This document shows positions 10,566 to 31,612 of a DNA stretch of 62,565 nucleotides, one piece after another; position 1 is the first letter of the stretch, and each line of letters starts with the position of its first letter. The notes under the pieces are model-generated. The model saw only the letters and a program-made list of their open reading frames with translations, was not told where the DNA came from and made no database searches. Both the position numbers and the translations under genes were made by a program. The stretch comes from Candidatus Parvarchaeota archaeon (GTDB lineage Archaea > Nanobdellota > Nanobdellia > WJKC01): contig JAUWZX010000001.1 of the NCBI GenBank assembly GCA_030615175.1, positions 1 through 62,565 of the forward strand, given 5' to 3'.

Positions 10566-11576
10566 ATGTTATTAATCAATGGCTCTTACGGAGAGTCAGG
10601 CGGGCAAATCGTGAGAATGGCTGTAGCATTTTCAGTTATCTTCCAAAAACCCATCAAAGTGATTAACATACGCTCTGGCAGGACTAAGCCAGGACTCAAG
10701 CACCAGCACTTAAACGCAATCAAGGCTCTTGCTGAATTAACTGACGCTGGCGTTAAGGGATTGGAATTAGGAAGTGGCTCATTAGAGTTCAGTCCTAAAG
10801 GACTTGTTAAGGATGAAGTGAAAATTAATATTCCAACCGCCGGCTCAATAGGATTATGCCTTCAATGCCTGATTCCTGCATTAATGCTTGTTAAAAAACA
10901 AGTCACTATTAATTTCAGTGGCGGCGCTACGTGCGGCAAGGGCTCGCCTCCGCTTGATTACATTCAAAACGTCTGGTTCACTAACATGAATTTATGGGGC
11001 TTGAATCCTGCTTCAGTAATTGTTGAACGCGAAGGATACTACCCCAAAGGAGGTGCAGCTGTCATTGTAAAGACTAATCCTTCAAGGATTCACCCTTACA
11101 CTGCTTTAAGCAGGGGAAAAGTATTGAGAATTAGGGGTTTAAGCCACTGTTCAAAGCATCTCGAGAAGAGGATGGTTGCGGACCGCCAGGCTCGCGAAGC
11201 ATTAAGACTCTTAAGTGCAGATTATGATGTAAAGATTAAGAGACTCTACTCTGACTCTGTTTGCCCCGGCTCAAGTATTACTTTATGGGCTGAATGCGAG
11301 AACAGTGTTATTGGCGCTGACGCTCTCGGGCACCTCGGAGTTGCTTCTGAACAAGTGGCGCGCGAGGCGGTGAAGAAACTCAAGAATGAGTTGGACTCTA
11401 ATGCCTCGTTTGACAGGCATATGACGGACATGCTAATCCCTGTAATGGCTCTTACAGGGGATTCAAGCATTACTGCAAGTGAAATCACTAATCATGCTAA
11501 AACGAATATCTGGCTGTGCGAGAAATTCATTGATAAAAAATTCATATTAAAAGATGACTTGATTAGTATTGATTAA
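10566..11576 (+). CDS. rtcA: RNA 3'-terminal phosphate cyclase
   Basis: GSYGESGGQIVR, RTKPGLKHQH, GYYPKGG, catalytic TNHAKTN. Confidence 0.95.
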   Translation: MLLINGSYGESGGQIVRMAVAFSVIFQKPIKVINIRSGRTKPGLKHQHLNAIKALAELTDAGVKGLELGSGSLEFSPKGLVKDEVKINIPTAGSIGLCLQCLIPALMLVKKQVTINFSGGATCGKGSPPLDYIQNVWFTNMNLWGLNPASVIVEREGYYPKGGAAVIVKTNPSRIHPYTALSRGKVLRIRGLSHCSKHLEKRMVADRQAREALRLLSADYDVKIKRLYSDSVCPGSSITLWAECENSVIGADALGHLGVASEQVAREAVKKLKNELDSNASFDRHMTDMLIPVMALTGDSSITASEITNHAKTNIWLCEKFIDKKFILKDDLISID

Positions 11577-11579
11577 GTA

Positions 11580-11659
11580 ATGAAGGACTGACCCTCTCGG
11601 AGGAGGAAGGGATGAAAAGGACAACCCCTCATACTCAATCATACAAAGTATGATAGTAT
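11580..11659 (-). ncRNA. Candidate structured RNA (19-bp hairpin plus adjacent second hairpin) between convergent genes
   Basis: Minus strand AUGAGGGGUUGUCCUUUUC pairs with GAGAGGGUCAGUCCUUCAU (18/19 pairs, 5 G-U); second stem ATCATAC-aaa-GTATGAT at 11638-11654. Confidence 0.5.
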
Positions 11660-11669
11660 TGTTTTATCT

Positions 11670-12218
11670 TTATAAATGTTTCGCGTTTACTTTGTCAAGA
11701 ATTATTTTAATACGCCTCTTAATGTTTTCATCCTTATCATCTGAGAATACCGGCAATTCAATTACTTCGCATCCTGAATCAAGGTATAATTTCTTTATTA
11801 AACTGCCAAGCATTCTGGATGTTTTCTCATCCTCCCATCTTTCAGAATCCTTGCTGTAATTATTTAATGGACGCAAGTAAAAAACAAGGTGGTACTTAAT
11901 CATGCCTGGTAATTCCAAGACTGCTTTCGGGATTTTACCACCCTTGTATAATAAGTAACCAATCGTGTCATGAATCCCCCTGTCAAAGAAGATTAAATCT
12001 GATTTATTGACTGACTTAACAATTGATAATTGCTTGTTTAATATTTCAAGTTCAAAACTGTAAAAATCCTTCCATGGAAGTATTTTGGAATTAGTACTTA
12101 ATCCTTTCTTAATTAATTCTCTTGCAACCTCTCCAACCGTTTTAAAACCCTTCCCTTTCAAAGTGTTAATGAGTGTGGTCTTGCCAGAGCATGACGGGCC
12201 AGTAATCATGACCTTCAT
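11670..12218 (-). CDS. P-loop ATPase/kinase (AAA_28, NadR-like)
   Basis: ITGPSCSGKTTL, EVAR, FFDRG..D, 'DSERWED'. Confidence 0.8.
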   Translation of the reverse strand: MKVMITGPSCSGKTTLINTLKGKGFKTVGEVARELIKKGLSTNSKILPWKDFYSFELEILNKQLSIVKSVNKSDLIFFDRGIHDTIGYLLYKGGKIPKAVLELPGMIKYHLVFYLRPLNNYSKDSERWEDEKTSRMLGSLIKKLYLDSGCEVIELPVFSDDKDENIKRRIKIILDKVNAKHL

Positions 12219-12255: not shown

Positions 12256-13320
12256 ATGAATAAGAAGGAGCGAATGCTTGAATGGATTAATAAATCATTA
12301 TCAATTGACATTGTGCACCACATTGACTCTGACGGCTTATGCGCGGCAGCTCAGATGATTAAATTCTTAGAAAAGAAAGGCAAGGACTACAACCTCGTGT
12401 CTGGAAGCCCTCAGCGCATGCGTTACTCAAACTTTTATAATAAACTTAAGAATGAGTTAATAATATTCCTTGACCTGCCCGCCGACCAGTTCATGGAAGA
12501 GATTTACAAACTAAATAACAGGGCTAATATCATAATAATTGACCATCACGTCTTGAACAAGGACATGAATAGTGATTCAATAATTCATTACAATCCAGTG
12601 CTTGACGGGATTAATAAGTACTGCCCTTCAAGCAAGCAGGTTTATGACTTATTCAAGAAGCATGACTGGATTGCAGTTATCGGCGTTCTAGGCGACTTAG
12701 GAGGCAAGCACTGGAGGGATTGGATTAACAGGGTTGAAAGAAAGCATGGCTTAAAACCATGCAGTGGAGAGAACTGTCTTGACTCTGAATTCGTTAAGTA
12801 TGACCACTTAATTAATTCTGCACGCATGGTTAAGGGCGAGGAAGGAAGTGATAAAGCATTAAAGGTTTTAATTGACAGCAAGTCATTTGAGGAATTCAAG
12901 GAAGAGAGTGTGAAGTTAATGGACTGGGAAAAGGAAGTAAGTGATTATTTAGACGAGTTAAAGGATACGTTTGAGAAAGATAAACTGGAGAATGAAAAAC
13001 TTGAATTATTAACTTATACTTTAAGGAATCTTAAATATAATATTGGCAGCGCGTTAAGCACTATTGTTAGCATGAAGCACCATAATAAGACTGTTGTGTT
13101 ATTCATTATTAAAGGCTCAATAGTTAATGTTAATTTAAGAAGACAGGACGGAAAGTATGACATGGCTGAACTATCCCGCCAGAGCACTAAAGGATTATTA
13201 AAAGCGTCTGGAGGAGGACATGCAAAAGCTGCTGGAGCGAGTTTAAGACTCGTGGACTACGCTGAATTCAGGAATAAATTAAGGAATAACTTAAGGGTTC
13301 AGATGAAAACTGCCAAGTAA
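12256..13320 (+). CDS. DHH-family phosphoesterase (RecJ-like) with DHHA1 domain
   Basis: HHIDSDG, FLDLP, IIDHH, GD, GGGH.KAAG motifs. Confidence 0.9.
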   Translation: MNKKERMLEWINKSLSIDIVHHIDSDGLCAAAQMIKFLEKKGKDYNLVSGSPQRMRYSNFYNKLKNELIIFLDLPADQFMEEIYKLNNRANIIIIDHHVLNKDMNSDSIIHYNPVLDGINKYCPSSKQVYDLFKKHDWIAVIGVLGDLGGKHWRDWINRVERKHGLKPCSGENCLDSEFVKYDHLINSARMVKGEEGSDKALKVLIDSKSFEEFKEESVKLMDWEKEVSDYLDELKDTFEKDKLENEKLELLTYTLRNLKYNIGSALSTIVSMKHHNKTVVLFIIKGSIVNVNLRRQDGKYDMAELSRQSTKGLLKASGGGHAKAAGASLRLVDYAEFRNKLRNNLRVQMKTAK

Positions 13321-29051: not shown

Positions 29052-31409
29052 TTATACAACAGTAACGTCTGAGTAAGTTGCACCTGCAGTGTTCAATGTT
29101 GAGTTCGTACCAGTTAAGCCCATGTCTACTCCTAAGGCCTGGCTTGCAACTACTTGCGCTGCCAGTCTAGTGTCCTTGCCAGCATAACCAGCAATGACCA
29201 TGGCTGTCTTATTGTTGAACGCGTTCTCAACTAGTTCAACGTAAGCCCTGTCAACCTCGTAATCAGCTGATGCCCTGCTCTTATTCTCGTCTACCAGGCT
29301 CTTAACTAACTGGTTAACTGCTGGTCCGCCAACCAAGATTATTGGCTTAGCTAATGTACTCGTTGTTATCTCAGTGTCAAGTTTTGCCAGTCCAATTGCA
29401 ATCGCGTTCACAGTCTCTGCTGTTCCGCCAGCGCTTGCAAGAGTCACATCCAATCTAGAGCTATACTCTCCGGCTGTTAAATTGTATTGCACTTTGTCTA
29501 CCTTGCCAAGCGATATGTCGCCTATTCTTGGTGCGTCAGGGTATTCAATTATTACCTGCGTTCCGCTAACCCTTGTCAACTTAGTGCCCCAGTCAATCGT
29601 GTAAATAGTGCTGCCTACACTTGCAATAGTGTTAATTAAGTCTGTTGTGTCAACGCCGCTAGCTAGGGCAATGTCTCCGCTAGTCCATGTTATTGTAACT
29701 GTATCAGTGTTATTCTCAGTTAGTGTCAACGTACCGTTCAATGATGAAGGTGATGACTGCCAAAGGCCTTCCGTGACTGCTGTCAAATTGTACACTAAAG
29801 AGTTGTTTATTATTGGCATGTTCACATCTGACGTGAAGTCCATCACTGTCAAGTTAACCTTCCTACTAACGCATCCTGATGCTGCTGCTGCATCTGTATC
29901 CCAAGTTACGTTAGCGAAAACAGTGTACCCTGTGATATTACCGTGCGTGGCATCGATTACGAACGGGGTTCCGTTATCAATCACTAAGTCTGGATGAGGG
30001 TAACTCCACATAACACTGTTTGACAGATTTAACTGGCTGCCGTCGCCAATGCACTCAAGTTTCCACACTCTGTTCTCCAACCAAGTGAATGTTGTCTCAT
30101 TAGTTGCCGTGCTAAAAGTCCTGTCCTGGATTAATCCAAGGTCCACGTAGTGCAGTGAGTCATTCTCGTCAGTGAATGTTACTTCAAAGCCAGTGCCTGT
30201 AGTTGCGCTTGAACCGTCATTAACTGTTACAATTATTGTATCCTTTGTTGTTGAATTAATTTTTAATGCTGCTGTTGTTACTTTAAAGAATCCTCCAAGC
30301 AACTGGAGTTCTGACCCTGCATTAACGTACGTGCCTAATTGGTTGTAATACTTCCATGCAATTGACGAAATTTCATCATTCAAATCTCCAATGTGAATAG
30401 TCCAGTTAGGCCATGTAGAACTCTCTCTTGTAACTGAATCACTGTCAAGTAATTTCAGTGTGCTCGTTGTCCAGTCAATAACCGCGTCAACCGTGCCGTC
30501 AGTAAGTACTTTCAATGTCTTTAAGTTTATTGTAATGCCTAAAGCATCGCTTGAATAACTTCCGCCTTCACTCCAGTACTTATTGTCAACTAAAACAGTG
30601 CCGTCCGCTTCCTTAATTAACATTCTTGCCTGAGGCGTTTCAGTTGCTGCAGTTATTTCAACAGTAACTCCTGAATCACCAATGTCATACGCTGTGTTTA
30701 ATTCTGCAGTAATGCTTTCTAAAGCACCTAAAGTAACGTTCTGCTCATTGCCATCGCTTGTGTAGTTAATAATCTGGTATTCCTGTCCGTCTGGGAATGG
30801 AATTCCCTTAGTGGCATTGCCTACTCCCTTATTACCTGTTGTTCCTAAATCACTGTTAAAGGTTAGGTTGTATATAATAGCCCCAGGGCCAATGTAAACC
30901 CTGCCATCCTCTTTCTGGTAAAGACCGCTTCCTGTAACTGATAATTTACCTGTTACATTGGCAAATTCGTCGTTAGTTGAGTTAGTAACAGTCTTGTTAG
31001 CAATCCATGAAAAACCAGTGCTGGTACTTATCCATTCCTGTGCCTCGTTGCCTGCTCCAATTGCAGAATAAGAGTTATTCAAATGTCCTGCTGTTGTGTT
31101 TCTCTCTAACACTGCTGTACCGCTTGTTGCTGATGTGGTTTTTGCCTGCTGGGCAAACGCTGCTGCAACCTCTATTGCTCCGGCAATGTCCTTAGCCATT
31201 CCAGCTGAGTTCTCGCACGTTATTGCCGTATTCCAAGTGCATGTACCTACTGCTATGTAAGTATCGAATTCTCCTTCTGTAATGAAAGTACTTGTCAAAG
31301 CTGATAAATCGGCTGTTGCTAATGCCCCGCTAATGGGCATCATTGTCATCAATGCTGCTGATGCTACTGCTGTAATCTTCTTTACAAATTTTTTTGTTTC
31401 AAATTTCAT
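29052..31409 (-). CDS. S-layer protein
   Basis: Signal peptide (start ATG 31409 after GGTGA), ADLS..., IILVGGPAVNQLV, VIAGYAGKDTRLAA; Thr/Asn-rich with many sequons. Confidence 0.88.
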   Translation of the reverse strand: MKFETKKFVKKITAVASAALMTMMPISGALATADLSALTSTFITEGEFDTYIAVGTCTWNTAITCENSAGMAKDIAGAIEVAAAFAQQAKTTSATSGTAVLERNTTAGHLNNSYSAIGAGNEAQEWISTSTGFSWIANKTVTNSTNDEFANVTGKLSVTGSGLYQKEDGRVYIGPGAIIYNLTFNSDLGTTGNKGVGNATKGIPFPDGQEYQIINYTSDGNEQNVTLGALESITAELNTAYDIGDSGVTVEITAATETPQARMLIKEADGTVLVDNKYWSEGGSYSSDALGITINLKTLKVLTDGTVDAVIDWTTSTLKLLDSDSVTRESSTWPNWTIHIGDLNDEISSIAWKYYNQLGTYVNAGSELQLLGGFFKVTTAALKINSTTKDTIIVTVNDGSSATTGTGFEVTFTDENDSLHYVDLGLIQDRTFSTATNETTFTWLENRVWKLECIGDGSQLNLSNSVMWSYPHPDLVIDNGTPFVIDATHGNITGYTVFANVTWDTDAAAASGCVSRKVNLTVMDFTSDVNMPIINNSLVYNLTAVTEGLWQSSPSSLNGTLTLTENNTDTVTITWTSGDIALASGVDTTDLINTIASVGSTIYTIDWGTKLTRVSGTQVIIEYPDAPRIGDISLGKVDKVQYNLTAGEYSSRLDVTLASAGGTAETVNAIAIGLAKLDTEITTSTLAKPIILVGGPAVNQLVKSLVDENKSRASADYEVDRAYVELVENAFNNKTAMVIAGYAGKDTRLAAQVVASQALGVDMGLTGTNSTLNTAGATYSDVTVV

Positions 31410-31475
31410 AATAAATTCACCCGACCTCCTCCGGAGGGGTATTAATAAGACTAAAATTATCAATATATATAAATG
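31410..31475 (-). promoter_or_regulatory. S-layer promoter and structured 5' leader
   Basis: TTTATATA at about 31473-31466; leader ACCCCTCCGGAGGAGGTCGGGTGAATTTATT-ATG with GC hairpin and SD GGTGA. Confidence 0.7.
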
Positions 31476-31612
31476 TTATGGTAAAGAAAGCCTAAAAAAA
31501 GCGTTTTTCCTGTTAAAAATTTCTTATGGAGCTTAAAAACTTTAAAAACCCGCAAAACAAGGTTATTCTTTTTAAAAATCAAAAAATAAGTGTTTTCACT
31601 ACTATCTTGTGA

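Follow-up and report, generated by a model that had tools for sequence, protein, structure and literature searches.

A predicted hairpin RNA of small-genome DPANN archaea with a loop complementary to the leader of an S-layer mRNA

The stretch of DNA analysed in this study, 62,565 nucleotides long and referred to here as the window, forms the beginning of contig C5 of an archaeal genome (G000; 1.02 Mb, 36% GC), which was treated as that of a DPANN archaeon of presumptive finer placement and whose relatives within the class have genomes of mostly 0.5-1.3 Mb. An earlier note on this sequence had described a minus-strand hairpin with an anti-Shine-Dalgarno (anti-SD) loop, and had read it as a trans-acting small RNA derived from a 3'UTR and controlling the translation of a distant S-layer gene, with a terminator or stability element as the alternative. 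The locus raises two questions, namely whether the hairpin belongs to an RNA gene of its own and whether the S-layer message is its target.

The stem was found where it had been described, at 11580-11632, its 19 positions being 18 pairs, including five G-U, plus one U-U, and the reported 15-nt loop was likewise present at 11599..11613 (minus strand). This pyrimidine loop carries a CCUCCUCC core that is invariant in all four genomes of family f1 (G000-G003), and it is the likely seed. Past a 1-nt bulge, 9 pairs beyond the described stem bring the stem to 27 bp (11570-11641). Moreover, the claim of strand-specific folding was borne out by folding both strands: the minus strand reached -30.9 kcal/mol (z -4.68; 0 of 200 shuffles equally good), and the same stretch of the plus strand reached -16.4 kcal/mol (z -0.38). 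Among the 12,850 non-coding 75-nt windows of the genome, the hairpin ranked in stability behind some two dozen loci, of which many resemble tRNA or rRNA. The predicted small RNA is a single hairpin of ~75 nt at 11570..11644 on the minus strand, with homologues in G001, G002 and G003 and with a presumptive 5' end placed by promoter spacing; the span 11580..11659 given earlier holds the hairpin, but positions 11645-11659 are upstream of the predicted start and probably outside the RNA. According to the prediction, the S-layer leader pairs with the loop together with the inner stem (11592..11616, minus strand), and the inner stem must open for this. No Rfam 15 family was matched at its gathering threshold in the window, the best scores of the region being 20-22 bits against cut-offs of 47-63, and a scan of seven homologue loci returned nothing but one tRNA. 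The RNA appears to be non-coding; a small plus-strand peptide was rejected because the 13-codon frame that follows GGAGG in G000 lacks a start codon in G001.

The first question is answered by the promoter region and the neighbouring genes. A BRE + TATA site was found at 11669..11684 (minus strand), scoring 13.4 bits (top 3.6e-5 of positions) with a matrix trained on 24 tRNA upstream regions of G000, a sigma-70 promoter scan not being applicable to archaea. In G000 it lies 24 nt from the predicted RNA start, a spacing shared with most tRNAs, and such a site is present in all four f1 genomes, with 11.3-16.7 bits and 23-26 nt before the predicted 5' end (11.3 bits in G002 and 13.1 bits in G003, each at 23 nt). 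The predicted 5' end and the stem base are 0-4 nt apart in each of the four, and the opposite side of the hairpin has a low promoter score in three of them. The constant neighbour is a divergent DHH/DHHA1 gene (12256..13320, plus strand), found in 4/4 genomes. An AAA_28 gene (11670..12218, minus strand) precedes the RNA gene on the same strand in G000, G001 and the metagenomic locus L166, and occupies this position nowhere else. In G002 and G003 no AAA gene lies between, and the sole upstream gene is the divergent DHH gene, which points away from the RNA. Because of this head-to-head arrangement without a same-strand upstream gene, and of the BRE-TATA site of its own, the RNA does not appear to be derived from a 3'UTR, and this part of the earlier reading was not supported. 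The possibility that the hairpin is the leader of a downstream gene was rejected, as the downstream gene is convergent in three of the four genomes. On these comparative data, we regard the locus as very probably a real RNA gene.

The convergent neighbour in G000 is rtcA (RNA 3'-terminal phosphate cyclase; 10566..11576, plus strand), which is no fixed partner, since G001 and G003 have other genes in that position. In these three genomes the convergent gene ends within the 3' arm of the hairpin; the three genes are mutually unrelated, G002 has none, and the overlap was read as genome compaction. Both neighbours of the G000 gene overlap it, the AAA_28 stop codon lying inside the TATA box (window 11669-11676) and the rtcA stop codon inside the 3' arm.

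The four f1 genomes share a common architecture of promoter, hairpin and CCUCCUCC loop. The fold z-scores of the promoter strand were -4.68 (G000), -6.33 (G001), -2.90 (G002) and -6.25 (G003), with a weak strand bias in G001 and G003, where the other strand scored -3.97 and -5.19. G001, which is of the same genus as G000, has the same upstream AAA gene, a different convergent gene and an altered stem; the comparison of the two stems (20 pairs) showed three two-sided and three one-sided changes. The stems of G002 and G003 are largely unlike in sequence, which indicates that the stem was rewritten between genera with the core kept, and the lowest-energy folds of these two pair part of the core weakly. 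These diverged copies were recovered by listing all occurrences of GGAGGAGG, and had been missed by BLAST and by a covariance model. In addition, a 13-nt motif that is identical in G002 and G003 lies between the DHH start and the RNA promoter (L240:1406-1420, plus strand; L251 about 983-971, minus strand), and is a possible regulator site.

The predicted regulated gene (29052..31409, minus strand) encodes an S-layer-like protein of 785 aa (Pfam PF05124, E 1.9e-15) with orthologues in all three f1 relatives, and lies about 19-21 kb from the RNA gene in G000, G001 and G002 and on another contig in G003. Its message has a 5'-terminal hairpin leader (31416..31440, minus strand), the predicted target, which is conserved in the four f1 genomes. 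In G000 the leader consists of the GGAGGAGG core followed by GGUGA 7 nt before the AUG, and the GGUGA just behind the core is the likely Shine-Dalgarno (SD) sequence. Across the family the core begins 20-43 nt before the AUG and is part of the leader hairpin. A probable promoter at 31466..31481 (minus strand; 7.9 bits, top 1.2e-3 of positions, 24-nt spacing), conserved in G001-G003, would start the mRNA at about 31441-31443, immediately ahead of the paired stretch. The analysis also revealed that this near-palindromic, 5'-terminal hairpin is conserved across at least nine families of the class (window 31416-31443, minus strand; L040-L045, L054, L062, L425-L436, L501), related forms being seen in f2, f5, f10, f13, f14, f16, f18 and f20, and the hairpin may be a stability or translation element by itself.

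The likeness that had been noted between the plus strand at the hairpin and the S-layer leader (31440-31416) is real, and amounts to 9 contiguous and in all 21 base pairs between RNA and leader, with a raw energy of -39.1 kcal/mol, or about -16.6 to -16.9 after opening costs. None of 5,230 background windows, prefiltered from 81,212 in the G000 genome with the element itself and the leader excluded, paired as well. Of 1,109 start regions the leader came first when a 28-nt query was used and second when the loop was used alone, and by raw energy it ranked 1/49, 1/33, 1/14 and 8/37 among the GGAGGAGG sites of G000 to G003. When the core was fixed and the 5' flank of the leader was shuffled, 34, 80, 5 and 86 of 2,000 sequences paired as well in the four genomes, and with both flanks shuffled the numbers were 8, 3, 1 and 658. 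In G002 the match comprises 15 contiguous pairs and 10 more over the AUG (25 bp), a base beside the core is changed in leader and RNA alike (C-G to U-A, a compensatory change), and the RNA prefers its own leader by at least 5.6 kcal/mol (-41.5 versus -25.7 to -35.9). The loop had been expected to cover the SD: the pairing on the 3' side does cover GGUGA in G000 and G001, and the start codon in G002, but the core itself begins 20-43 nt upstream of the AUG, inside the leader hairpin. Furthermore, of four better-scoring G000 leaders that were examined, two belong to genes not found in the three relatives, and in the others the pairing falls across relatives to -4.9..-9.2 (SecD) and -10.6..-13.4 (RpoD), compared with -12.6..-20.4 kept by the S-layer leader.

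The pairing with the S-layer leader is thermodynamically not unique. With accessibility-corrected energies, which are our own approximation of IntaRNA at 37 C, the four genomes gave -16.6, -19.3, -20.0 and -12.6 (G000-G003); the leader came 11th among 150 prefiltered G000 start regions, and 13/49, 8/33, 3/14 and 17/37 among the core sites of the four genomes. The genome-wide ranking of targets that had been suggested as a check thus gave a divided result, first by raw energy (1/1,109, and in three of four genomes) but only 3rd-17th when opening costs were counted, and the lower ranks arise because the leader's own hairpin must open. Full co-folding gained -2.5, -3.3, -12.5 and 0 kcal/mol, respectively. 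G003 is the weak case, in which 22 background windows pair as well, no preference for the own leader was seen and the 3' side was no better than shuffles (1,841 of 2,000). The RNAs of G000 and G001 cross-pair about equally well, the CCUCCUCC core is also a generic anti-SD, and the co-variation amounts to a single event in each of f1 and f5. The flank matches are moreover inflated because the leader is near-palindromic and the G-rich 3' segment of the RNA is constrained by its own stem.

Evidence from outside f1 also bears on the S-layer leader as the target. A pattern for the leader 5' arm, run on 401 genomes, matched in 37, and among 30 loci folded only those of family f5 fitted. All three f5 genomes have a separate TATA-hairpin-U-tract gene (L455:1478-1520, minus strand; L456:1490-1535, plus strand; L450:922-965, plus strand), with a hairpin of ~35 nt, a purine loop and a conserved TATA, that is complementary to the S-layer leader of the respective genome over the leader's first 13 nt. 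Each genome contains exactly one further copy of the leader 5' motif, antisense in the hairpin, and one compensatory change was observed, G040 differing from G007 and G026 at one position in both partners. The fold z-scores were -1.4, -3.3 and -3.3, the net energies -14.0, -10.3 and -12.0, and the promoter score a modest 5.8 bits. As the f5 RNA covers the 5' arm of the leader only, it could free the SD, and could be an activator. In 7/7 genomes of f1 and f5, only two independent lineages, a copy of the leader motif occurs within or next to a hairpin loop, in antisense orientation with respect to its own promoter. A looser pattern, applied to 24 genomes, matched about 157 times, and the folding of 50 of these places led to a third RNA in family f10, where six of seven genomes have a TATA-hairpin-U-tract gene beside and divergent from rpl21e (L517:1540-1610, minus strand; L518, L519, L520, L585, L586), with varying stems and a conserved CCUCC loop. 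The pairing of this loop with the S-layer leader spans about 10 nt (-17.8 and -18.1), and G052, which has no RNA gene at that place, has a changed leader; the S-layer leader is a less certain target here. No Rfam family matched the three f10 loci scanned. The five bases following the f10 core are also conserved. With the patterns used, no comparable RNA gene was found in the leader-bearing genomes G004, G023, G015, G016, G031 and G020; for family f18 the search covered 30 of 251 sites.

The conservation in 4/4 f1 genomes, the replacement of the stem with the loop kept and the co-variation of RNA and target support the earlier reading of a trans-acting sRNA. It is fairly likely that these RNAs constitute a new family of DPANN trans-acting sRNAs, probably acting on S-layer translation, and there is a good chance that the S-layer leader is the functional target. 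In this model, a stand-alone antisense RNA of about 75 nt would be transcribed from its own BRE-TATA promoter, and its stem would present the unpaired pyrimidine loop, which would seed on the GGAGGAGG of the S-layer 5' leader, perhaps before the nascent leader folds. Pairing would then spread to the first mRNA nucleotides as the inner stem of the RNA opens, and would extend onto the SD (G000, G001) or the start codon (G002). The resulting duplex would replace the leader hairpin and most likely block 30S binding and lower S-layer synthesis; alternatively, opening of the leader could activate or stabilise the S-layer mRNA. Given pairing in the cell, repression would be the somewhat favoured outcome, and activation or stabilisation a minority prospect. 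A wider proposal can be advanced tentatively, namely that several small-genome archaeal families possess a dedicated one-hairpin RNA whose loop co-evolved with the S-layer 5' hairpin (at the core and start region in f1, at the 5' arm in f5, with f10 maybe a third), as a recurring switch that lowers or raises coat synthesis, perhaps as cells change between a free and a host-attached state, which would make this the first predicted sRNA-target pair of DPANN archaea. The cell envelope is the surface that meets hosts and viruses. DPANN genomes are reduced, and a conserved sRNA-S-layer pair would show post-transcriptional control of the envelope; if true, this would be a simple RNA switch for cell-coat building in a tiny-genome archaeon and its relatives, and the short RNA pair could be tested in vitro or by a reporter without culturing the organism.

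Other explanations must be weighed against S-layer control by pairing. An unlikely one, which is compatible with the preferred reading, is that the small RNA is real but is a general anti-SD repressor of many purine-rich ribosome-binding sites, the S-layer site being one of them. The CCUCCUCC core does resemble the anti-SD end of 16S rRNA, ten G000 start regions surpass the S-layer leader by loop-only pairing when accessibility is counted, and the f10 look-alike, with a 16S-like CCUCC loop, pairs only about 10 nt with its leader. However, the four top alternative targets are absent from relatives or lose the pairing there, in three of four genomes the pairing outside the core singles out the S-layer leader, and a general repressor would not need the f5 purine loop aimed at the 5' arm of the leader.

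It is improbable that the common motif is instead a protein binding site at both loci, either a palindromic DNA operator or an RNA motif, without RNA-RNA pairing. Repressors often bind just downstream of start sites, which is where the S-layer leader has its core, an almost perfect inverted repeat; the motif is moreover older and wider in distribution than the RNA gene. Such a site would nevertheless not account for a copy that lies antisense to its own promoter, in or beside a hairpin loop, in every f1 and f5 genome, and an operator leaves the 10 extra pairs over the G002 start codon unexplained.

We consider it highly improbable that the hairpin is a cis element, whether a terminator or 3' stability hairpin of AAA_28, as the earlier note had allowed, or an antisense RNA or terminator for the convergent gene. 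It does lie on the same strand behind AAA_28 in G000, G001 and L166, and its 3' arm overlaps the end of the convergent gene in three of four genomes, but G002 and G003 have no same-strand upstream gene and the three convergent genes are unrelated, with none in G002. The element has its own promoter site, a terminator needs no invariant loop, the G000 plus strand does not fold, and no bacterial-type terminator was found. Least probable of all is a 16S rRNA guide or chaperone, in which the loop would act by its 11/12-nt pairing with a conserved purine stretch late in 16S (-30.2 raw in G000), since this pairing, although the 16S of G002 and G003 differs from that of G000 at one position in step with the RNA loops, has net energies of -14.9, -9.3 and -7.4, weaker than the S-layer leader in each genome compared (G000, G002, G003; the G001 16S site was not found with the pattern used), leaves the flank pairing to the leader unexplained and comes without C/D or H/ACA boxes. 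Box C/D guides are defined by C and D boxes, and H/ACA guides by a terminal ACA and an internal pocket. Like archaeal guides of these classes, the hairpin RNA is small and promoter-driven, has a segment complementary to 16S rRNA and may overlap ORF 3' ends; unlike them, it has a long uninterrupted stem and a terminal loop. Both guide classes were rejected because no D box and no terminal ACA were present on the transcribed strand in 4/4 genomes.

RNAs of the kind proposed here have counterparts in bacteria. C-rich anti-SD loops occur in Staphylococcus RNAIII and the Rsa RNAs, and CopA is an antisense RNA whose pairing is initiated in a loop. Like these, the hairpin RNA has a stable stem whose unpaired, C-rich loop would seed on a G-rich leader before the pairing extends; it differs in its archaeal promoter, in that Rfam showed no related sequence and in a predicted target that co-varies from one family to the next. 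In the passages devoted to them, sRNA162, sRNA41 and sRNA154 of Methanosarcina mazei are presented as trans-encoded archaeal sRNAs that mask ribosome-binding sites (PMC3510493, PMC5867862, PMC4152357). As described in those passages, these are intergenic archaeal RNAs with a single-stranded anti-RBS segment and predicted pairing at the translation start of a distant mRNA, as in the present case, and sRNA154 uses loops, as the hairpin RNA would (PMC5867862). The hairpin RNA differs from them in being much smaller, a single hairpin from a DPANN lineage without an Rfam match, and its predicted target is the extreme 5' end of the S-layer message, a leader that forms a conserved hairpin of its own; moreover, by the same accounts sRNA162 has been shown experimentally, and the RNA described here is predicted from sequence. 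In their relevant parts, two reviews include Nanoarchaeum equitans among species with small RNAs, without giving counts, and take their target examples from other archaea (PMC5867862, PMC4152357). A term search of the main texts of PMC10134863 and bioRxiv 10.64898/2026.05.13.725050 yielded nothing on sRNAs or on S-layers, and among titles and openings, outside subscription journals and bioRxiv supplements, no description of this hairpin RNA or of any S-layer-directed sRNA was found. The RNA would represent an sRNA family of a known kind, one whose proposed target is specific, biologically central and unusually well supported by the comparison of genomes.

Further copies were sought by several methods. 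A BLAST-type search of 61 genomes recovered G001 only. Covariance model R1 was set aside for its poor structure, and model R2, run on 149 genomes, found G000, G001 and a weak match in G138 (E 0.015, without the loop motif); the blanks of R2 are uninformative because it missed the true G002 and G003 copies. An exact-pattern scan gave 4 loci in genomes with one real (L103), 68 in metagenomes with one real (L166, whose hairpin is near-identical) and 53 in viral sequences with none real, as judged among the matches listed of these 125 (low-GC or well-folded); L194, a GC-rich fold, was set aside for want of a TATA box. A TATA+loop pattern applied to 401 genomes of the class gave 25 matches in 24 genomes, all of which were folded, and the architecture was found only in three f1 copies, G001 having been missed through the last letter of the pattern. 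Further hairpins were observed in these genomes. Outside the window, G000:C5 about 83591-83665 (minus strand) has a hairpin among the most stable non-coding windows, which carries what we take to be an SRP-RNA-like motif, and an SRP RNA identity was rejected for the RNA described here because this SRP-like hairpin sits elsewhere in G000. Repeated G/C-rich hairpins follow TATA-like boxes at G002:C2:99-290, G002:C5:10-74, G002:C6:34910-34971 and G001:C19:3168-3234 (L566, L567), two of them in tandem in G002.
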